From assembly GCA_022567275.1 (NCBI GenBank), contig JADFHH010000001.1, forward strand, positions 1 to 27,713: a stretch of DNA of 27,713 nt, in the 5' to 3' direction. The notes under the pieces were generated by a model. The model was not told the origin of the DNA. It worked only from the letters and a program-made list of their open reading frames with translations, and made no database searches. Within the stretch, counting starts at the first letter, position 1, and each line of letters starts with the position of its first letter. Source of the stretch: Pseudomonadota bacterium (lineage in GTDB: Bacteria; Pseudomonadota; Alphaproteobacteria; Rhizobiales; Methyloligellaceae). The translations under genes and the position numbers were made by a program. Positions 2,962-24,746 of this stretch are shown piece by piece.

Positions 2962-4140
2962 TTATCGTTTTATCTGAGACAGGATAATTTCAGCCGCCCG
3001 TTCGCTCGGCGTTCCGCTGCCAAGCGTCATGCGGGAACTCAGGCCGCTCAGCGCATCGATCTGGCGTTTTCGTTCCACACCGTCCTTATCCAGCAGAGCC
3101 AGCAGAGCGCGGGAAAGATTGTCCGCTGAACAGGCCGCATGGACGAATTCGGGAAATATATTTTCTCCCAGAATGAGGTTCGGCAGGACGATGGAATGTG
3201 CCTTCAGCATCCAGTGGAACGGCGCGACTATGGCCTCCATCCGGTAGCCGACAACCATCGGTGTGCCGGCCAGCGCCAGTTCCAGCGTGACGGTGCCCGA
3301 CGTGGCGAGCGCCGCATCGGCGAGCCGGAAGGCCTGGAATTTTTTCTCTTCCCCGGTGATCAGATGCGGGGTCAGCGGCCAGCCGGCGAGGGCGGTGCGG
3401 ATCAGCTCTTCAACGCCGGGCGCGAGCGGAACTATCACATTCAACGGGCCGGCTGCGTCCATGACGCGCCCCAGGGCGCCGCCATAGGCGGCCATCACGC
3501 GTCTCACTTCGCTGGACCGGCTGCCCGGTAGAACAACGATCACAGGCAGGCCTGCTTTCAGACCCAATGATTTTGCCAGCTTGGCCGGCTGGCGCGATCT
3601 GATCCACGCAAGGCGTTCAATGAGCGGATGACCGACATAGCTGCAATCGGGACCGCCAAGCCGTTCATGCGCCGCCGGTTCAAATGGGAGAATGGCCAGC
3701 ACATGGTCGATGTAGCGACGCATCTTGCGCGCCCTGCCCGGCCGCCAGGCCCAGATACTCGGCGAGACGTAATCGATAACCGGTATTCCGGGCAATCGGC
3801 GCTTCACGCGTCTGGCGATAGGATGAGTAAATTCGGGGCTATCGAGGATGACCAGGGCATCGGGCTTCATCGCCACCGCTGCGTCAACGCTCTGATAGAC
3901 GCGTTTTATAATCGTGCGCAACTGGGCGAGTATCGCCAACGGCCCCATCACCGCGACATCGGAAAGCGGAAACAGCGAAACACACCCCTGCGCGGCCATG
4001 GCTTCGCCGCCTACTCCGGAAATTTCAACCTCTCGTCCAGCCAACTTGCGAAGGGCGGGAATGAGTTTGCCGCCGAGCTGATCGCCGGAAAGCTCGCCCG
4101 CCACGACAAACAGCCGTAACGGCTCCTGAGGTTCGGTCAT
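2962..4140 (-). CDS. lpxB: Lipid-A-disaccharide synthase
   Basis: VAGELSGDQLG, DYVSPSIWAWRPGR, YVGHPL, LPGSRSSE, SGTVTLELAL motifs; ATGA overlap with lpxI stop. Confidence 0.96.
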   Translation of the reverse strand: MTEPQEPLRLFVVAGELSGDQLGGKLIPALRKLAGREVEISGVGGEAMAAQGCVSLFPLSDVAVMGPLAILAQLRTIIKRVYQSVDAAVAMKPDALVILDSPEFTHPIARRVKRRLPGIPVIDYVSPSIWAWRPGRARKMRRYIDHVLAILPFEPAAHERLGGPDCSYVGHPLIERLAWIRSRQPAKLAKSLGLKAGLPVIVVLPGSRSSEVRRVMAAYGGALGRVMDAAGPLNVIVPLAPGVEELIRTALAGWPLTPHLITGEEKKFQAFRLADAALATSGTVTLELALAGTPMVVGYRMEAIVAPFHWMLKAHSIVLPNLILGENIFPEFVHAACSADNLSRALLALLDKDGVERKRQIDALSGLSSRMTLGSGTPSERAAEIILSQIKR

Positions 4141-5009
4141 ACCTGCTTGCCGTCACTCATCTCGACGCCGACGATAAACAGACCGGCATCGTTGGCGCTC
4201 TTTACGAATCTCTCGCGATCGACAATCAGGACATCATTGGCGGCAATGGCAATACCAGCCAGTCCGGCTGCCGATGCATGGCGTACGGTCTCCGGTCCGA
4301 CCGTCGGCAAATCAATCCGCCGTTCCTGGCCAGGTTTTGCGCATTTGACAAGAACGCCTGATCGTTTGCGGCGGCCAATCCTGCCTCGCTTATTCAGCTC
4401 CTTGCAGCGTTGAAGCATCTTGTCGGTGCCTTCCGCCGCCTCGACCGCCAGGACATATTGGTGCGCGACAACGGTTGCCTGCCCGACGTCGAGCGACCCG
4501 AGCGCGGCGAGAACCTCCAGCCCGATGGCGATATCCCTTCGATCCGTCTTGCCCGGACGCCGTTTGCTGAATACGCCTTTGCCGGCAATCAGCTCAGGTG
4601 CGATTTCATGGGCTCCCACGACCCTAAACCCCTTGCTTTCAAAAAAACCGATTATACCTGTCAGCACGCTATTGTCGCCGCCTGCCAACCATCCAAGAAG
4701 CGATGGCAGGTTTACCAAGGCCCCGAAATCTATTCTCAACTCCGATAGCCTGGGCCTTCTGACCCCCCCAACGATAACCATTTCCCGGCAATTCGCGGTC
4801 TTCGATACAGACAGGACCTTGCCGATATGACCGAAGTTGATCCAGCTATGGGGAAATTTCTCTATTCCAGGATCAGTCACCCCTCTAATGCCGAAAATAT
4901 GAATGCTGCGCCCGGCGGAGATAGCGGCATTGGCGACTCTGAGCGGCATTGCACCACTACCTGCGATGATGCTGAGACCGCTCGGGCTATGTACGGGTGC
5001 GATGGCCAT
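4137..5009 (-). CDS. lpxI: UDP-2,3-diacylglucosamine pyrophosphatase LpxI (DUF1009)
   Basis: IIAGSGAMP N-terminus, LDVGQATVV, LAVEAAEGTD, VLVKCAKPGQERRIDLPTVG; lies between lpxA and lpxB as in other Alphaproteobacteria. Confidence 0.93.
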   Translation of the reverse strand: MAIAPVHSPSGLSIIAGSGAMPLRVANAAISAGRSIHIFGIRGVTDPGIEKFPHSWINFGHIGKVLSVSKTANCREMVIVGGVRRPRLSELRIDFGALVNLPSLLGWLAGGDNSVLTGIIGFFESKGFRVVGAHEIAPELIAGKGVFSKRRPGKTDRRDIAIGLEVLAALGSLDVGQATVVAHQYVLAVEAAEGTDKMLQRCKELNKRGRIGRRKRSGVLVKCAKPGQERRIDLPTVGPETVRHASAAGLAGIAIAANDVLIVDRERFVKSANDAGLFIVGVEMSDGKQV

Positions 5010-12441: not shown

Positions 12442-13299
12442 TCATGGCCACATCAGGAGCGCTCTGCCCGGTTCAGGAAACCCGCGGGCCACGGCGATAC
12501 AACCCGCGGCAAGGGCCGTCCCGATCATCCCGTCGACACGATCGAACAGACCCCCATGGCCCGGCAGCAGTTGCCCCGAATCCTTGACATGAAACTTTCG
12601 TTTGATGGCGGACTCCGTCAAATCGCCAATTTGACAGGCGAGCGCCAGTCCCGCGCCCAGAAGTGCAAGTCCCGGTGCCCATGTGCCGCCAAGCCATAGC
12701 GCAAATCCATAAGCCAGCATAGTGGGGAGCGCCAGCCCGCCAACCAGTCCCGACCAGGTCTTTCCCGGCGATATAACCGGCGCGAGTTTCGCTCCGCCAA
12801 TGGTGCGTCCTGTGAAGTAGGCGGCAATGTCAGCCGACCAGACCACAAGGAACAGAAAAAAGATGGCGCTAACCCCAAATGCGGCATCCGACCGGAAGAA
12901 AACAAGCAAGATAGCCGGTACTCCGAGATAGATGACGCCGAGTGCGGACCATAGCCGTGTCCCGGGGGAACCCGATGTGAATGCGGCGGCAAGGGCGCCG
13001 GCGCCAAGCGCCAGCATTGCCAACCAGGCTGAACCCATGCCGGCACATATACAGGCAGCTATAGTCGCTGCCCCATGCACATAGAATGCGCCATCCAAGG
13101 CCTCACCACGGACCAGCCGTCCCCATTCCCAGGCAAGCACGGCGCTGGCGGCGGCAATCATTACGGTGAAGGGCCAAAGGCCGGAATAAGTCAGAACACC
13201 GGCCATTGCGGCGAGAACGAGCGCACTAAGGGTTCGCTTCGCATTTTCACTATATGATCGCGATGCACGCTGGTCCCGGCAGCGGCGTTTGCCGCTCAC
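12442..13299 (-). CDS. cdsA: Phosphatidate cytidylyltransferase
   Basis: Polytopic hydrophobic protein; ISPGKTWSG, KDSGQLLPGHGGLFDRVD; GTGA overlap with the uppS stop. Confidence 0.94.
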   Translation of the reverse strand: MSGKRRCRDQRASRSYSENAKRTLSALVLAAMAGVLTYSGLWPFTVMIAAASAVLAWEWGRLVRGEALDGAFYVHGAATIAACICAGMGSAWLAMLALGAGALAAAFTSGSPGTRLWSALGVIYLGVPAILLVFFRSDAAFGVSAIFFLFLVVWSADIAAYFTGRTIGGAKLAPVISPGKTWSGLVGGLALPTMLAYGFALWLGGTWAPGLALLGAGLALACQIGDLTESAIKRKFHVKDSGQLLPGHGGLFDRVDGMIGTALAAGCIAVARGFPEPGRALLMWP

Positions 13300-14054
13300 G
13301 CGCTGGAACCCGCGCGCAGGCCGCCAAATCTGCGTTCCCGGTCATGGAATGTCTCGATCGCCGAAAGCAGCGTCTCACGCGTAAAATCCGGCCAGTAGCT
13401 GTCGAGGAAGACAAGTTCCGTATAAGCGCATTGCCAGAGCAGGAAGTTGGACAGGCGAACTTCACCGCTGGTGCGGATCAATAAGTCCGGATCGGGCAGT
13501 CCGGAGGTGTCGAGAAAGTCACTCAGGGAATCTACTGTTATATCTTGCGGATCGAGCGTGCCCTCCTTGACCTGCTCAGCCATGCGCTTCGCCGCGCGGG
13601 CAATCTCGTCACGTGAGCCATAGTTGAAGGCCACGGTCAGTTGCAGGCCGGTATTGCCGGATGTAAGCGTAACCGCATCTTCGAACAGCCGGATAATATC
13701 GCCTTCGATGCCTTCGCGCGCGCCAATGATACGGATGCGCACGGCGTGCTTGTGCAAATCCGTCATATCGGTGCGGATAAAGCGGCGCAGCAGCGTCATG
13801 AGGTCGCGAATTTCAGATTGCGGCCGCGACCAGTTTTCAGACGAAAAACTGAACAGCGTCAGATATTGCAAATCCAGGTCAATGGCTGCCCTTACGGCAG
13901 CGCGCACACTTTCAACGCCGCGTTTGTGACCATCCGAGCGGGACAACCCGCGTTGCGCCGCCCAGCGCCCGTTACCGTCCATGATAATGGCGATATGCCG
14001 AGGCATTTCACGTGCGCAATCTGGCTCTCTGGTATCGTGTTCCGGTATCGACAA
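13296..14054 (-). CDS. uppS: Undecaprenyl diphosphate synthase (isoprenyl transferase)
   Basis: PRHIAIIMDGNGRW, FSSENWSRP, FNYGSRDEI, DLLIRTSGEVRLSNFLLWQ; start uncertain (TTG 14054 or ATG 14006). Confidence 0.95.
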   Translation of the reverse strand: MSIPEHDTREPDCAREMPRHIAIIMDGNGRWAAQRGLSRSDGHKRGVESVRAAVRAAIDLDLQYLTLFSFSSENWSRPQSEIRDLMTLLRRFIRTDMTDLHKHAVRIRIIGAREGIEGDIIRLFEDAVTLTSGNTGLQLTVAFNYGSRDEIARAAKRMAEQVKEGTLDPQDITVDSLSDFLDTSGLPDPDLLIRTSGEVRLSNFLLWQCAYTELVFLDSYWPDFTRETLLSAIETFHDRERRFGGLRAGSSA

Positions 14055-14117: not shown

Positions 14118-14675
14118 TCAGATTTGCATGATATCCTGTTCTTTGGCTGACAGCGCGTCATCAATCTTTTTGATGACGGCGTCGGTGACTTCCTGAACCT
14201 CGGCGCCGTGGGTGTGTTGCTCATCCTGACCGATCTCACCCTCTTTTTCCTGACGCTTGAGCTGTTCCATACCATCGCGCCGCACATTACGAACCGCAAC
14301 GCGCGACTGTTCGGCATATTTGCCCGCAAGCTTGACCATTTCCCGACGCCGTTCTTCATTCAATTCCGGTATGGGAATGCGCAACACCAGGCCTTCGCCG
14401 ATGGGGTTCAGGCCAAGATCGGCTTCCCGGATCGCCTTGTCGACCGCATCGATGTTCGACTTGTCCCAGACCTGAACGGAAATCATGCGCGCTTCGGGTG
14501 CCGTGATGGTTGCCAGCTGATTCAGAGGCATTGGCGTACCATAGGCGTCCACCGTCACCGGGTCGAGAAGGCTGGCGTTCGCCCGTCCCGTTCTCAAGCT
14601 GCCAAACTCCTGCTGAAGCACATTCAGCGCACCGTTCATACGCCTCTCGATATCCTTGAGATCATACCCGGACAT
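14118..14675 (-). CDS. frr: Ribosome recycling factor (185 aa)
   Basis: [35 protein letters not shown]; strong SD AGGAGG just upstream of ATG 14675 gives the canonical length. Confidence 0.97.
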
Positions 14676-14699
14676 TATCGCCCTCCTTCTGCACGACTC

Positions 14700-14822
14700 G
14701 CATATTATGCTCCAACGCCACATCAAGACAGCGTTCGCCAGCACATTCAATGACCAAATTATGTGTATTGTGCCCTCACGGGCAAGAGCGATTGCCATAG
14801 ATGTGCGTAATGACGTGAGGCC
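14700..14822 (-). pseudogene. pyrH: Probable eroded 3' remnant of UMP kinase pyrH
   Basis: Occupies the usual pyrH slot between tsf and frr. Minus-strand translation [33 protein letters not shown]… resembles the recalled alphaproteobacterial PyrH C-terminus GLxVMDxxAxALARENxIPIIVFSI. Only ~40 codons, compared by eye. Confidence 0.55.
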
Positions 14823-14837
14823 CCGAGGGATGCAGGG

Positions 14838-15764
14838 CTAGTTTCCCGATGCCGCGGCCGCGACCTCGGCGGCAAAATCGTCTGTTTTCTTCTCCACCCC
14901 TTCACCCAGGGCAAAGCGCACAAATCCGGTGATTTTTATCTCACTGCCAATGCCGGATGCCGCTGCCTCTACCGCTTGCTCCACCTTGCTTTCGCCGTCA
15001 ATAACATAGACTTGAGACAGCAGCGCGACTTCCGCATAGAATTTTCGCAAGCGTCCTTCTACCATTTTGCCGATAATGTTTTCCGGCTTGCCTGAGTCCC
15101 GGGCCTGCTCTGTCAGCACGGTACGCTCGCGTTCAATGACGGCTGGATCAATGTCTTCCTTGCTGACAGCCAACGGGTTTGCCGCCGCCACATGCATCGC
15201 AAGCTTGCGGCCGAAATCTTCCAGCGCGTCCGTATCGCCCGATGATTCCAGGGCGACCAGAACGCCGATCCTGCCCAGCCCCGGCGCTACACTATTGTGT
15301 ACATAGCTGGCGACCACACCGTGGGTAACCTGGAGCCGCTGACTCCGGCGCAGCACCATATTCTCCCCGAGTGAACCAACCATATTCTTGATCTGATCGG
15401 CCACGCTGAGATCGCCTTCGCCGTAGGGCATGGCGGAGAGTGCATCCGTGTCTTTTGCCTCCAGGGCGAGCCTGGATATGGTCGAAACCATGTTTTGGAA
15501 CCGAGCGTTGCGGGCAACGAAGTCGGTTTCCGAATTGACCTCGACCAAGGCGCCGGAGGTACCGTCCGTTGCCAGCCCAACAAGCCCTTCGGCGGCAACG
15601 CGGTCCGCTTTTTTCGCGGCGCTGGCGAGGCCCTTGGTCCTGAGCCAATCGACAGAAGCTTCCAGATCGCCCTCATTTTCCATCAGCGCCGTCTTGCAAT
15701 CCATCATCCCCGCGCTGGTCTTGTCGCGCAGTTCCTTCACCATCGATGCGGTAATGGCCGTCAT
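14838..15764 (-). CDS. tsf: Translation elongation factor Ts
   Basis: [55 protein letters not shown]. Confidence 0.98.
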
Positions 15765-15827: not shown

Positions 15828-16988
15828 TCAACCGCTCTTCTTCGCCAGTTCCCTGGCCTGTTTGACCCAGTCATCGCTTTCGATGCGGCCCTTTAATGTA
15901 AGCGCATCATCGATCTCCGCTATATCCGACTTTTTCAACGCGGCGATCTGCCGGTAGTGGAAAATACCATAATCATTGAGTTTTGTTTCCAGCGCAGGGC
16001 CAATACCAGTGAACATCTTGAGGTCATCAGCCTCGCCATCCGGCTTTTTGAGTTTCTCAAATCCGGCAGTCTTCTCTGCCGGAGCGGCGTCTTTCTTCTT
16101 TTCGGCTTCTTTCTCGGCTGGTTTCTTCCTGGCTTCAGGTATTTCTGCGGCGTCCCGTTTCTCCGAAGTTTCTTTCGCCTCGGCCTCGGGTTTGGCTTCC
16201 GGTTCGGCTTTTTCTAAGGCCGTATCATCGCTTTTCACAAGCGCTTCTTCGACGGCCGGTTGCGCCGACTCGCCGATATCGATACCAGCGTCGCTTTGTG
16301 CCCGCTCGATACCGTCGATCGCGGCGCGGGAAATCAAATCGCAATACAGCGTGATGGCGCGGGCCGCGTCATCGTTTCCCGGAATTGGATAGGTGATGTG
16401 ATCGGGATCGCAGTTTGTATCGACAATGGCGATCACCGGTATGCCGAGCTTGCGCGCTTCGGCAATGGCAATGGCTTCCTTGTTGGTGTCGATGACAAAC
16501 AAAACATCGGGCAAGCCGCCAATGTCCTTGATGCCGCCAATGGCATGTTCGATCTTGTCGCGCTCGCGCGTAAGCTGCAGCAGTTCTTTTTTGGTGAGAC
16601 CCTCGTCGGATTCTCTATCCAGCGTTTCTTCAAGCTGCCGCAGACGCTTCAGCGATTTAGAAATTGTCTGCCAGTTGGTCAGCGTTCCGCCCAGCCAGCG
16701 GTGATTGATGTAATGTTGCGCGCATTGCCGCGCGCCTTCAGCGATGGCTTCAGAGGCCTGGCGCTTGGTGCCGACAAACAGCAGGCGGCCGCCTTTGGCG
16801 ATTGTGTCCGATACAATGACCAGCGCCTGATGCAGCAACGGCACCGTCTGCGCCAGATCGATGATATGAATATTGTTCCGCGTGCCAAAGATGTAGGTCC
16901 CCATCTTCGGGTTCCAGCGGTGTTTCTGATGGCCAAAATGTACGCCTGCCTCCAAGAGCTGGCGCATGGTGAAATCCGGCAGTGTCAT
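15828..16988 (-). CDS. rpsB: 30S ribosomal protein S2 with a charged linker and C-terminal helix-hairpin-helix-like extension (386 aa)
   Basis: [44 protein letters not shown]; SD AGGAG ahead of ATG 16988; extra domain [17 protein letters not shown]…[15 protein letters not shown]. Confidence 0.97.
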
Positions 16989-17135
16989 GACTGCGCTCCT
17001 TTTCCGGTTCGACCGCCGCGGATGAGTTGACGCCATGTTGAAGAAACATGTCGCACCGGAGAGTGGCGGTGCCTGAAGTCAGGCCGGCATGAGACCGGCT
17101 TAACAGGCCCACCGCTTGGTATCCGCGTGTGAGAT
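16989..17135 (-). promoter_or_regulatory. rpsB 5' leader, probable S2 autogenous-control RNA structure
   Basis: Complementary pairs CGCGGAU (17127-17121)/AUCCGCG (17023-17017) and UCCGGU (17060-17055)/ACCGGA (17008-17003), plus internal hairpins (CAUGUU…AACAUG; GCCGG…CCGGC), directly upstream of the SD. Confidence 0.7.
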
Positions 17136-17142
17136 GGGCTGC

Positions 17143-17171
17143 CTTATAGGCATCAACTCAGGACTTGGCAA
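17143..17171 (-). promoter_or_regulatory. Sigma70-type promoter of the rpsB-tsf operon
   Basis: TTGCCA (17171-17166), exactly 17 bp spacer, TATAAG (17148-17143), followed by GC-rich GCAGCCC; the -35 lies in the last codons of dnaE. Confidence 0.75.
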
Positions 17172-20100
17172 GTGTGAGCGCGGGTGTGCTTCCGGCGTGT
17201 GGGCGCCTGGTTCTGCCGTCTGCGGGAATGGGCTCTATGGATTGTACGCCTTGAATGACACGAAGCGCGCCTGTGCTACGCGGCGATATGTCGTAGCGGC
17301 CGGGAATTTCCACCTCGACTTCACGTCCTATATCGCCAAGGCGCAGGATCAAATGGATGACCGCGTTTCCCTCTTGCGGCAGGCGCGCACGCAATCGTTC
17401 CAGCGAAGAAATATCATCAATTCTGACCCGCAACCCGCTTTGCGTGCGCTGAACGACAGCGTCGAGGGATTCAACATGGGTGATGCGGGCGCGCAAGGAT
17501 TCAGCTTGCTGTTCCGCTTCGATCTTCACCAGAACCGATGTGCCGGGTGAAAAGTCATCGCCATGGCTGGCGAGCAATTCCGAAAATACGATGGCTTCAT
17601 ACTGGCCGCTCTGGTCGGACAGGCCGATAAAGGCATAGCGGTTGCCTTTGGCCGAGCTGCGGTCCTGCCGGTAGGCCACGGTGCCCGCGAGACACGCGGT
17701 GGTGGCGCTTTTCGCCGCCCGGGCGCTGAATTCCGCCCAGCTGATAACACCCTCGCGCTCAAGGATGGATTGATATTCATCTAGCGGATGCCCCGACACG
17801 TAAAAGCCGATGGCTTCCAGCTCGCGCGCCAGGCGTTCGATTGGCAACCAGGGTTCTGCAGCATCGCGCAGGATCAGTTCACGGGCGCTCCCCTCGCCAA
17901 ACAAATCGTTCTGATTGGCATTTTCAGATGTTGCGGCGGCGCGCAAAATACGCTCTGAATTGGCGAACAGTTTGCCGCGATCCGGTTCAAACTCGTCAAG
18001 TGCACCCGCAGCGATGAGCGCCTCAAGTCCACGCTTGTTCACCGCACGGCCTTCCATGCGGCGGGCAAAATCGGCAAGAGAGTCGTAATTGCCGTTGTTC
18101 TCGCGCTCATCGGCAATATGCCCTGCCGCCGCTCGGCCCATATTCTTGAGCGCGCCAAGCGCATAGCGGATGGAATTTTCACCGGCGCTGAAGTCCGCAT
18201 ATGAGGCATTTACACTTGGCGGTTCGATGGTAATTCCCGCCCTTCGCGCATCCTGAACGAAGATATTCAGCTTGTCGGTGTTGCCCATATCCAGGGTCAT
18301 GGACGCGGCGAGAAATTCGACGCGATGGTTGGCCTTCAGATAGGCGGTTTGATAGGCCAGCAATGCATAAGCGGCGGCGTGGGATTTGTTAAAACCGTAA
18401 CCGGCGAATTTCGCCACCAGTGCAAAAATATATTCAGCGTTGCCGCGCTCGACTTTATTGGCTACGGCGCCTTCCACGAACCGCGTCCGCTGCTGGTCCA
18501 TCTCCTTCTTGATTTTCTTGCCCATGGCGCGGCGCAGCAGGTCCGCTTCGCCAAGCGAATAACCTGACAGCACCTGGGCAATCTGCATCACCTGTTCCTG
18601 GTAGATGATGACCCCGTAAGTTTCCTCCAGAATGGGTTTGATGAGAGCATGGAGATAGTCCGGCTCTTCGGTCCCGTGCTTGCGGTTGATGAAAGACTCG
18701 ATGTTGGCCATGGGGCCCGGGCGGTACAGGGCGACCATGGCGATGATGTCTTCAAACCGGTCGGGTTTCAGCTTGCGCAGGGCGTCGCGCATGCCGGTAC
18801 TTTCAAGCTGGAACACGCCAACGGTTTCAGCCTCGCAGAGCAGGGCAAAGGTGCGTTCATCGTCAAGCGGCAGGCGGGCAGGATCGATATCCTCGCCGCG
18901 GTTGGCTATTAACTGCTTGGCCTTTTCAATGACCGTCAGCGTTTTCAGACCGAGAAAATCGAATTTGACGAGACCTGCGGCCTCCACCCATTTCATATTG
19001 AACTGGGTCGCAGGCAGGGAGGAGCGCGCATCGCGATACAGCGGCACCAGCTCGGTGAGAGGCCGGTCGCCGATAACGATACCGGCCGCATGGGTCGAGG
19101 CATGGCGGTAGAGCCCCTCCAGGCGCTGGCCGATATTCAGCAGCCGCGCGACAATAGGTTCGCGGTCACGCTCTTCACGCAATTTGGGTTCCGTGGCGAT
19201 GGCTTCGCCGAGTGTGACAGGATTGGCCGGATCGGCGGGTATCATCTTGCACAACCGGTCGACATGGCCATAGGGCATTTGCAAGACGCGGCCGACGTCC
19301 CGCAACACCGCGCGCGCCTGAAGTTTTCCGAAGGTGATGATCTGGGCCACCCGGTCGTCGCCATATTTCTCCTGAACATAAGCGATCACCTCATCGCGCC
19401 GGTCCTGGCAGAAATCGATATCGAAGTCCGGCATCGACACCCGTTCGGGGTTGAGAAAGCGCTCGAACAGCAAACCGAAGCGAATGGGGTCGAGGTCGGT
19501 AATGGTGAGCGCCCAGGAGACAACCGAACCGGCCCCCGATCCGCGCCCCGGCCCGACCGGGATTTTGGCGTTCTTGGCCCATTTGATAAAATCGGCGACG
19601 ATCAGGAAATAGCCCGCATAGGTCATGCGCGTAATGATTTCCAGCTCGCTCTCAAGACGCTGCCAATAGAGAATTTCCTCAAACCCGGCCGCCGGCCCTT
19701 CTTCGCTCAGCCTTTTGCGCAACCCCTTTTCGGCCTGGGTCTTCAGCTCCCCGGCCTCATCTTCAAGCGAAGCGCTGTGCGGCAATATCGGTTCACGCGT
19801 GCGCGGGCGATAGGCGCAGCGCCGCGCAATCTCGACCGTGTTGTCCAGCGCTTCGGGCAAATCATCGAACAGCGCGGCCATTTCAGCGGCGCTCTTGAAA
19901 TAATGCTGCGGGCTCAGCCGCCGCCGGTCATCGACAGCGATATAACTGCCCTCGGCGATGCAAATAAGCGCATCATGGGCCTCGAAATCATCAGGCGTTG
20001 GGAAAAATGGCTGATTGGTGGCAACCAGCGGGATGTCGAGCGCATAGGCGAGCGACAGCAGCTCCGGCTCGACAAGCTTTTCATCCTCCAGACCATGGCG

Positions 20101-20676
20101 TTGCAGCTCCACATACAACCGGTCGCCGAAAACCGCGGCCAGCCTTTCAAGCCTGGTGCGGGCCAATGCCGCATTTCCAGCCAGCAAAGCCTGATCGAGG
20201 GGCCCTTCCGGCCCGCCGCTCAGCGCTATCAACCCGGTATGATGCTGGTCGAGAACATCAAATGTGACGAACGGGCCGGACGCATCGTCATGGTCAAGGA
20301 AGGCCTTGCTGGAAAGCTGCAACAGATTTGCGTATCCGGCTTCGTCCCTGGCGAGAACAACGAGCGCGCCGCCAGCTTCTTTGGCGGGAATAGCGCTGTC
20401 ATGCCTGGCTTCAAGCTTGCCGCCATTGCGTTTTGCGTCGGCGAAATCCACTCTCAGGGTGCACCCGATGATGGGCTGCACGCCTGCCTGGACAAGCGTT
20501 TCGGAAAATTCCAGGGCGCCAAAGAGGTTATTGCGGTCGGTGATCGCCAGCGCCGGCATTTTGCAGGCCACGGCCAGCTCGGCGAGCCTGGAGATTGGCA
20601 GTGCCCCTTCAAGCAGCGAATAGGCGGAATGAAGGTGCAAATGCACGAACGGGCGTGTGCTCTCCTTCGCTGCCAT
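17158..20676 (-). CDS. dnaE: DNA polymerase III alpha subunit (DnaE1)
   Basis: PHP domain HLHLHSAYSLLEG, GPGRGSGAGS, ERVSMPDFDIDF, STHAAG, KFDFLGLKTLT, GVFQLES, YGFNKSHAAAY; 1172 aa; SD GGGGAG. Confidence 0.98.
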   Translation of the reverse strand: MAAKESTRPFVHLHLHSAYSLLEGALPISRLAELAVACKMPALAITDRNNLFGALEFSETLVQAGVQPIIGCTLRVDFADAKRNGGKLEARHDSAIPAKEAGGALVVLARDEAGYANLLQLSSKAFLDHDDASGPFVTFDVLDQHHTGLIALSGGPEGPLDQALLAGNAALARTRLERLAAVFGDRLYVELQRHGLEDEKLVEPELLSLAYALDIPLVATNQPFFPTPDDFEAHDALICIAEGSYIAVDDRRRLSPQHYFKSAAEMAALFDDLPEALDNTVEIARRCAYRPRTREPILPHSASLEDEAGELKTQAEKGLRKRLSEEGPAAGFEEILYWQRLESELEIITRMTYAGYFLIVADFIKWAKNAKIPVGPGRGSGAGSVVSWALTITDLDPIRFGLLFERFLNPERVSMPDFDIDFCQDRRDEVIAYVQEKYGDDRVAQIITFGKLQARAVLRDVGRVLQMPYGHVDRLCKMIPADPANPVTLGEAIATEPKLREERDREPIVARLLNIGQRLEGLYRHASTHAAGIVIGDRPLTELVPLYRDARSSLPATQFNMKWVEAAGLVKFDFLGLKTLTVIEKAKQLIANRGEDIDPARLPLDDERTFALLCEAETVGVFQLESTGMRDALRKLKPDRFEDIIAMVALYRPGPMANIESFINRKHGTEEPDYLHALIKPILEETYGVIIYQEQVMQIAQVLSGYSLGEADLLRRAMGKKIKKEMDQQRTRFVEGAVANKVERGNAEYIFALVAKFAGYGFNKSHAAAYALLAYQTAYLKANHRVEFLAASMTLDMGNTDKLNIFVQDARRAGITIEPPSVNASYADFSAGENSIRYALGALKNMGRAAAGHIADERENNGNYDSLADFARRMEGRAVNKRGLEALIAAGALDEFEPDRGKLFANSERILRAAATSENANQNDLFGEGSARELILRDAAEPWLPIERLARELEAIGFYVSGHPLDEYQSILEREGVISWAEFSARAAKSATTACLAGTVAYRQDRSSAKGNRYAFIGLSDQSGQYEAIVFSELLASHGDDFSPGTSVLVKIEAEQQAESLRARITHVESLDAVVQRTQSGLRVRIDDISSLERLRARLPQEGNAVIHLILRLGDIGREVEVEIPGRYDISPRSTGALRVIQGVQSIEPIPADGRTRRPHAGSTPALTLAKS

Positions 20677-24090: not shown

Positions 24091-24209
24091 AGGCGCCGCC
24101 TGTTGAGTGGTGTTGGTCTGGTTTTCGCGATACCCATGGCGGCCACGGCGGGCGCTAAAGCTCGATGGAGTGCCAGCGCTCAGTCTAGGGATGATTGCGC
24201 GCTAATAGC

Positions 24210-24659
24210 TTACTTTGGTGGGGGTAAGCAATCCCGCCGCCAATCGTGCCCGTTGAATGAGAATTGGTTTGTCGCCGGGTCGAACGCGAAAGTGCCGCCA
24301 TACAACTCGATATCCCTGCCGGCAATCTGTTTGGTGCCCAGTTTGACACCAACGCCGACGCCTGCGGGAAACATGCTGCTGAACCCCTTCGGCGGCTCCG
24401 CTGGAATTATCGGTCGGCCCCAGGGATCGCGCCCTGGAATATATTCCGCCCCGGCGCCTGGCGGCAGGGCGACGCAATCGGGGCGTATGATCAGTCCGTA
24501 TTCATGATGCTGGCTGTTCGACCAGCGCGGAGTGAAATGATCGAATGGATCGCTTGTATAGGCGCCGCTGCGCGCCAGGTTCGGTATGAGCGCGACAATG
24601 CTCGCAAAAACGAGCAGATAGATGCCAAAACCCGGTGTGGTGTTTATTCCATGTCTCAT
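24210..24659 (-). CDS. Hypothetical exported protein (149 aa)
   Basis: Fills the gap co-oriented with proS; hydrophobic N-terminal signal-like segment (FGIYLLVFASIVALIPNLARS), two Cys, Pro/Gly-rich AEYIPGRDPWGRPIIPAE segment; -10-like TATACT just upstream. Confidence 0.75.
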   Translation of the reverse strand: MRHGINTTPGFGIYLLVFASIVALIPNLARSGAYTSDPFDHFTPRWSNSQHHEYGLIIRPDCVALPPGAGAEYIPGRDPWGRPIIPAEPPKGFSSMFPAGVGVGVKLGTKQIAGRDIELYGGTFAFDPATNQFSFNGHDWRRDCLPPPK

Positions 24660-24666
24660 CGCCGTC

Positions 24667-24700
24667 AGTATAGGCGCAATGCGATTAAAGGCGCCCTAAC
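24667..24700 (-). promoter_or_regulatory. Putative promoter of the hypothetical gene: -10 TATACT with a CtrA-like box over the -35 region
   Basis: TATACT at 24672-24667 sits 7 nt before ATG 24659; TTAA-N7-CTAAC at 24685-24700 is one mismatch from the CtrA consensus TTAA-N7-TTAAC. Confidence 0.45.
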
Positions 24701-24746
24701 GTCATTTGGCTTAAAGCGAACATTGCGTTTAGCATATTAATGTATT

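Follow-up and report, generated by a model that had tools for sequence, protein, structure and literature searches.

Our results indicate that pyrH has been lost from an entire genus of uncultured bacteria in the family of Methyloligella (order Hyphomicrobiales), and we regard this loss as almost certainly real and genus-wide. The gene is missing from its place between tsf and frr, tsf directly adjoins frr, and PyrH is found in none of the 11 genus genomes, in agreement with an earlier note on this DNA, which had proposed that pyrH was deleted from the tsf-pyrH-frr cluster. On balance, we favor a history in which pyrH was deleted in the ancestor of the genus, a probable promoter of frr embedded in the gene was spared, and Cmk, as the likeliest candidate, may have become the UMP kinase. 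The whole stretch of DNA that was analysed, referred to here as the window, is 27,713 nucleotides (27.7 kb) long and corresponds to contig 49 of a MAG (G000; 2.39 Mb, 484 contigs, 80.7% complete). Because of this completeness, the absence of pyrH from G000 alone would mean little.

The minus strand of the window carries a long gene cluster of the kind usual in alphaproteobacteria (Table 1), which starts with RNase J, a glyoxalase-family gene, DUF1467, proS, lolC/E-like, lolD-like, dnaE, rpsB and tsf, and continues with frr, uppS, cdsA, dxr, rseP, bamA, lpxD, fabZ, lpxA, lpxI and lpxB; gltX and gltA are on the plus strand, at the left end of the window. The earlier note had placed the tsf stop and the frr start 162 bp apart with no pyrH between them and the rest of the rpsB-to-lpxB cluster present. 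These coordinates and the gene content are correct, as is the minus-strand frame 0 translation that it gave for the gap. Besides the pyrH region, the window contains no kinase-like or unexplained gene able to serve as a substitute, and the tsf-frr gap has no Rfam match and an RNA fold that is not unusual (z = 0.64). Several other features of the window deserve a brief mention. S2, the product of rpsB, has a C-terminal extension of about 150 aa that cross-matches the low-complexity tails of the NuoE, L21 and phasin models, and its best model is NF008966 (long alphaproteobacterial S2). The lipid A cluster carries lpxI (LpxI_N and LpxI_C domains; 4137-5009, minus strand), not lpxH, as is usual in alphaproteobacteria. 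Finally, ORFs of 134-158 aa without a Pfam match are found on both strands at 24103-24740, between proS and DUF1467.

Table 1. Features of the tsf-frr region and neighboring genes, in window coordinates
Feature	Position	Strand	Remarks
dnaE	17158-20676	minus	
rpsB	15828-17036	minus	402 aa; NF008966 552 bits
tsf (elongation factor Ts)	14838-15764	minus	intact, 308 aa; TIGR00116 311 bits, cut-off 104
tsf stop codon TAG	14838-14840	minus	
tsf-frr gap	14676-14837	minus	162 bp; relatives have pyrH of ~720 bp there
pyrH remnant	14757-14796	minus	pyrH bases ~597-637; codons (A)AIALAR-xx-x-I-x-II; from DNA and protein profiles
-35-like hexamer CTTGCC	14781-14786	minus	CTTGC invariant in 11/11 species
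-10-like hexamer CATAAT	14758-14763	minus	invariant in 11/11 species; 17 nt after CTTGCC, 82 nt before frr ATG
frr Shine-Dalgarno AGGAGG	14682-14687	minus	6 nt before ATG; read from the sequence
frr (ribosome recycling factor)	14118-14675	minus	185 aa, ATG at 14675; TIGR00496 214 bits
uppS	13296-14054	minus	downstream of frr; NF011408 383 bits

The genus is represented by 11 species, all of them MAGs, of which the named ones come from at least three projects. The genomes range from 2.8 to 5.4 Mb in size; seven are 95-99% complete, and one (G001) is a closed chromosome in a single contig of 4,920,361 bp (OZ245829.1). With one genome per species, tsf and frr are adjacent in 11 of 11, separated by 162-517 bp overall and by 220-517 bp in the 10 species other than that of the window. 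In G000, the best match to TIGR02075 reached 26 bits against a curated cut-off of 243.9 and lay in a 430-aa aspartokinase-like ORF, and a local PyrH profile run with filters off yielded no match among all G000 ORFs. The same model recovered no PyrH in the 10 congeners, where the sole matches (E ~1e-8) were ORFs of aspartokinase size (420-510 aa). On the closed chromosome, three ORFs make up the whole amino-acid-kinase family, and their sizes are those of ArgB, LysC and ProB. Every other genus of the family, by comparison, contains a TIGR02075 match at E ~1e-93, and at a threshold of E<=1e-15 PyrH was detected in 127 of the 130 other family genomes versus 0 of 11 in the genus; the three family genomes outside the genus that had no PyrH match are MAGs of 63-84% completeness. 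The deletion is old, being common to all 11 species, among which Tsf differs by ~21% on average. The genus retains both pyrF and pyrG; UMP is therefore made and UTP needed, so that a UMP kinase activity is still required.

Apparent pyrH losses elsewhere did not withstand closer inspection. In G032, a member of another family, frr is absent along with pyrH and the genome is 94% complete, which identifies the case as an assembly gap and not a second loss. A 104-codon piece of pyrH in G018 was rejected as a deletion intermediate, since it is cut by a contig end. The L047 genome (G040 = G157), which belongs to another family and has a Tsf 70% identical, was likewise discounted, as the linkage of tsf and pyrH is broken there and pyrH-frr is kept elsewhere. 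At this locus (L047, 3928-6178), where the cluster is broken, tsf is followed by a DUF1489-like ORF, rpmG and a MerR-type regulator; pyrH-frr-uppS lie on a separate contig of the same genome.

A small part of pyrH can still be recognized in the gap. When the window was searched by nhmmer with a DNA profile of full-length pyrH genes from 17 relatives, the best match in the whole 27.7 kb was the remnant, at profile positions 597-636 (E 0.0099). Among the 10 other genus genomes, 9 had a match to the same positions in the gap, with E values ranging from 4e-5 to ~1. At the protein level, positions 200-215 of the PyrH profile (aaialardnkipiiv) were matched in 8 of 11 genus gaps. The remnant of G000 reads GGCAATCGCTCTTGCCCGTGAGGGCACAATACACATAATT (14796-14757, minus strand), and the closest relatives have GCG ATC GCG CTT GCC CGC GAC AAC GAT ATC CCG ATA ATT GT at this site. 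Upstream of AIALAR and downstream of IPII, similarity to pyrH in the gap is not significant. The detectable pyrH is confined to ~40 nt of ~720, and an alignment of the 11 genus gaps reveals one conserved block and almost nothing besides. Judged by these profile matches, part of the PyrH C-terminal region does survive in the gap; the resemblance to the PyrH C-terminus pointed out in the earlier note is real, if short. In the source genome, the profile search places the TIGR00496 match at residues 52-226 of a longer ORF (14118-14798, 226 aa). The in-frame extension of frr up to the ATG at 14798 is non-coding, and in 8 of 11 genus species its frame is broken or out of frame with frr. In G000, G001 and G002 the relic is open and in frame with frr, producing a spurious 226-aa 'long Frr' ORF, and for this reason gene callers may misplace the frr start within this ORF.

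The pattern of conservation within the remnant is that of a promoter. Alphaproteobacterial sigma-70 promoters have the consensus CTTGAC-N17-CTATAT. In all 11 genus species the block comprises two near-consensus hexamers separated by a variable spacer within the 16-18 nt range of sigma-70-type promoters: CTTGC[CT]-N17-CATAAT recurs in each of them with no indel, and invariance at 11 of its 12 hexamer positions contrasts with free variation across the 17-nt spacer. A search of the window for CTTGCY-N17-CATAAT returned this one site, and 100 shuffles gave no match. A promoter scan lists TTGCCC-16-CATAAT at 14785-14758; as a single site it scores 9/12, a level at which a stretch of 3.3 kb is expected to contain 1.6 sites. 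In the genus species, 44-56 nt separate the block from the preceding tsf stop and 82-200 nt from the following frr start; the exception is G010, where it follows the tsf stop by 314 nt because of an insertion. The gap of this species (L015) is 517 bp long and includes an insertion of ~260 bp upstream of the promoter block, within the first ~300 nt after tsf. Its ends form a 20-nt inverted repeat (AGCAACTTCCGACCATACGG ... CCGTATGGTCGGAAGTTGCT), by virtue of which it has the look of a small mobile or MITE-like element.

The same bases also stand out in pyrH genes that are intact. Among 79 distinct intact pyrH genes of Hyphomicrobiales and neighbors, codon usage deviates most strongly at the Leu of AIALAR, whose codon forms part of CTTGC: 45 of 79 genes have CTT there, compared to 18% of all pyrH Leu codons (G = 65). 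The first of the two Ile codons of II coincides with the -10 site, and there the rare ATA accounts for 42% of Ile codons versus 9% overall in pyrH. From the invariant hexamers, the drift of spacer and reading frame, and the synonymous-codon bias in intact pyrH, we infer that the 40-nt relic is, with good probability, a promoter of frr that was once embedded in pyrH. A recognizable 'protein' fragment would thus persist because the embedded element outlived its host gene. The earlier note had regarded the gap as an eroded scar, the product of old decay and not of an assembly break. The age that it assigned is upheld by the sharing of the deletion among 11 species with Tsf ~21% apart, whereas the neutral erosion is not: two invariant hexamers, a variable 17-nt spacer and a frame that is not conserved fit a promoter and not a decaying coding sequence.

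To identify enzymes that could phosphorylate UMP, the known nucleoside-monophosphate kinase families were searched in the genus and in pyrH-bearing relatives. The AK-type UMP/CMP kinase (TIGR01359), one of the replacements envisaged by the earlier note, had no match at cut-off, and each genus genome has a single adk-like locus. tmk is single copy in the genus. Profiles of small P-loop kinases (AAA_18 and AAA_33) retrieved nothing genus-specific; they matched shikimate kinase, CysC-type proteins, PhnN encoded in a phn operon, and a protein of ~530 aa that outgroups also have. A carbamate-kinase-like fourth member of the amino-acid-kinase family is present in G004 and G009 and absent from G001, and was dismissed as the substitute. 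G009 alone among the genus genomes searched encodes a 334-aa protein with an archaeal-type Cytidylate_kin2 domain (PF13189, 66 bits; L160, G009:C8, 611-1612, plus strand), which is therefore not a general substitute and appears to be an odd accessory kinase. A zeta-toxin-like P-loop ORF on contig C187 of G000 was judged an unlikely candidate. As for cmk, every genus genome has one copy above cut-off and no paralogue of the kind sought by the earlier note. The elimination of the other known families, together with the precedent in Escherichia coli, makes Cmk the leading candidate.

By its profile matches, the Cmk of the genus is of the standard bacterial type (TIGR00017 179.5 bits, cut-off 135.6; PF02224 185 bits). 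Aligned to 1KDO, it has the CMP-contact residues conserved, and its cytosine, ribose and phosphate contacts are the same as those of pyrH-bearing relatives: S36 (Thr in both), Y40, R41, R110, R131, D132, D185 and R188. Substitutions fixed in the genus are found beside the contacts, namely, D129E (in the DGRD motif), L175H, E/D177Q, a Glu at E. coli position 148 and A191S, with L175H and E/D177Q sitting just before R181-R188. Two of these genus-specific residues (in EGRD and SPL) also occur in the mycobacterial Cmk 3r8c (PDB), and mycobacteria retain pyrH. Genus-fixed changes at outgroup-invariant sites number 3/78 in Cmk, 2/128 in Tsf and 1/85 in Frr, too few to separate the proteins; the stem branch relative to crown depth is 1.14 for Cmk and 1.10 for Frr, so that the Cmk branch is not the longer one; and the pairwise distance ratios of Cmk are flat. 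Hence, neither fixed differences nor distance ratios nor stem/crown branch ratios reveal a clear signature of Cmk adaptation in the genus. With regard to the surroundings of the gene, the upstream ORF in G000 (o5997), which we take to be aroA, is separate and ends 3 nt before cmk. In six relatives (G012, G014, G017, G020, G023 and G024; L138, L140, L143, L146, L149 and L150, respectively), the stop-to-stop frame of cmk extends to 330-680 aa, so that cmk may share a reading frame, or form a fusion, with the gene before it.

The precedent in question is experimental. In E. coli, pyrH can be deleted completely when cmk is overexpressed from a plasmid, and the cells grow even if this expression is merely leaky (Bergmiller et al. 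2012, PMC3386227). E. coli Cmk has a low UMP kinase activity (PMC3603445), and the rescue of E. coli pyrH by multicopy cmk is credited to Yamanaka et al. 1992 in the passage of PMC3603445 that cites it. From the elimination and this precedent we infer that Cmk might act as the substitute UMP kinase of the genus, a candidacy that we hold tentatively. The broadened Cmk put forward in the earlier note thus stays the leading option, with no clear sign of broadening: the cytosine-contact residues are unchanged and no acceleration of the rate was detected.

These conclusions have to be weighed against several other readings of the same data. G000 is a fragmented assembly of 484 contigs, and mis-assembly or faulty binning in this genome alone could in principle have produced the tsf-frr junction. 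The probability of this is negligible, since an identical junction is found in 10 other species, on contigs of up to 4.9 Mb, and the shared junction, combined with the PyrH count of 0/11 versus 127/130, refutes the artefact for practical purposes. A related concern is that pyrH has been relocated and not lost, residing on a replicon or in a region systematically missing from the assemblies; all 11 genus genomes are MAGs, that of the window being incomplete, and extra replicons are often left unbinned. We consider this very improbable, because no pyrH fragment exists in any of the seven genomes of 95-99% completeness or in the closed chromosome, because pyrH is seen in 127 of 130 same-family genomes of similar quality, and because the ancestral locus is deleted throughout the genus. 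As far as the assemblies show, the case is not one of simple translocation, for which the earlier note had allowed, given that there is no native pyrH elsewhere, even in the closed chromosome. As to the 40-nt block, its homology to pyrH and its chance in-frame position relative to frr in G000 would also suit a functionless, neutral leftover that is still visible because decay is slow. This appears unlikely when the surrounding gap is barely alignable among species with Tsf ~21% different and the hexamers are nevertheless invariant at fixed spacing, and when the same bases are constrained at synonymous sites of intact pyrH genes.

Concerning the kinase, UDP could be produced from UMP by a class III, NMP-phosphorylating PPK2, and genus genomes do possess 3-5 PPK2 genes. 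Three of the G001 proteins have scores like those of the PPK2 in G004 and G009. Compared with solved structures, these three come nearest to class I enzymes (Francisella 5LL0 and Sinorhizobium 3CZQ/6DZG, E 1e-85 to 1e-115), and their similarity to class III is much lower (E 1e-26 to 1e-38). PPK2 genes also occur in outgroups, in similar numbers in the pyrH-bearing relative G016, and G004 and G009 lack the two additional copies that G001 has. There is thus scant probability that PPK2 fills the role. A more serious alternative, if still an unlikely one in our estimate, is that the ancestor of the genus acquired or co-opted an unrecognized, non-homologous UMP kinase, from a family with no known link to this activity, so that pyrH could be dispensed with and Cmk kept its ordinary role. 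The unchanged base-contact residues of Cmk and its lack of acceleration are compatible with such an enzyme, as is the fact that the searches spanned known kinase families only. On the other side, no candidate emerged, the families searched contain no genus-specific small P-loop kinase, and the E. coli experiment demonstrates that Cmk alone can suffice.

Based on these considerations, we propose the following history, with the spared promoter and the takeover by Cmk as its conjectural elements. In the common ancestor of the genus, ~600 bp of pyrH would have been deleted from tsf-pyrH-frr, and ~80 coding bases following the surviving block would later have decayed into a 5' leader. The 40-nt block itself would have been spared by the deletion and held by selection ever since, presumably because it acts as a sigma-70-type promoter (CTTGCC-N17-CATAAT). 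This promoter would have lain within the 3' part of pyrH before the deletion, and it would drive frr and probably also the subsequent genes. Either the deletion had to spare this promoter or only deletions sparing it survived. With UMP still made de novo and UTP needed for CTP synthase, a non-orthologous enzyme would phosphorylate UMP, and the single-copy Cmk, as the only remaining member of a known NMP kinase family with documented UMP activity, would be the most likely substitute.

Bacteria are generally assumed to have PyrH without exception and to depend on it, and the enzyme is a proposed antibiotic target that has no known eukaryotic homologue. The literature, of which our coverage was partial, contained no report of a bacterial lineage without pyrH, which is weak evidence of novelty. 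A natural, ancient and genus-wide loss in bacteria with ordinary genome sizes and an intact de novo pyrimidine pathway shows that the UMP kinase step can be re-routed in nature, and which other enzymes can be UMP kinases becomes a question testable with a handful of genes. It is conceivable, though we have doubts, that this genus, which is free-living as far as the genome sizes suggest, employs an enzyme family new to UMP phosphorylation or a Cmk retuned without change in the known specificity residues. Regulation of pyrimidine nucleotide synthesis must differ in the genus, because the loss of PyrH removes its known GTP/UTP allosteric control point. Two points reach beyond this genus: a 'protein-like' scar can long persist as a regulatory element embedded in a gene, which constitutes a general trap, and, as a general rule, hosted promoters shape gene deletions. 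In practical terms, pyrH is a phylogenomic marker gene (TIGR02075, a GTDB bac120 marker), and genome-quality tools will always find the genus one marker short.

Finally, the system can be placed alongside those already known. With respect to the bacterial PyrH (TIGR02075), the relic derives, by its profile matches, from this gene, whereas the gene itself is gone and the ~40 bases are untranslated. E. coli frr has transcripts that start independently of tsf and pyrH (PMC6131387), and the promoter-like element upstream of frr described here is akin to that arrangement. Compared to other promoters embedded in upstream genes, the putative element of the genus and its relatives lies within pyrH codons ~199-212, and in the genus it has outlived its host gene. 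The eukaryotic UMP/CMP kinase (AK family, TIGR01359), one enzyme acting on both UMP and CMP, offers a model for what Cmk may do in this genus, although the genus has no member of that family beyond the ordinary adk. The closest counterpart is the E. coli pyrH deletion carrying multicopy cmk: both are without the essential amino-acid-kinase-family UMP kinase, and what is left that could phosphorylate UMP is an unrelated P-loop CMP kinase. Unlike in the plasmid-supplied E. coli case, there is no demonstrated change to Cmk in the genus. The E. coli strain is a laboratory construct with cmk on a plasmid, whereas the condition of the genus is natural, ancient and fixed, with cmk in single copy.
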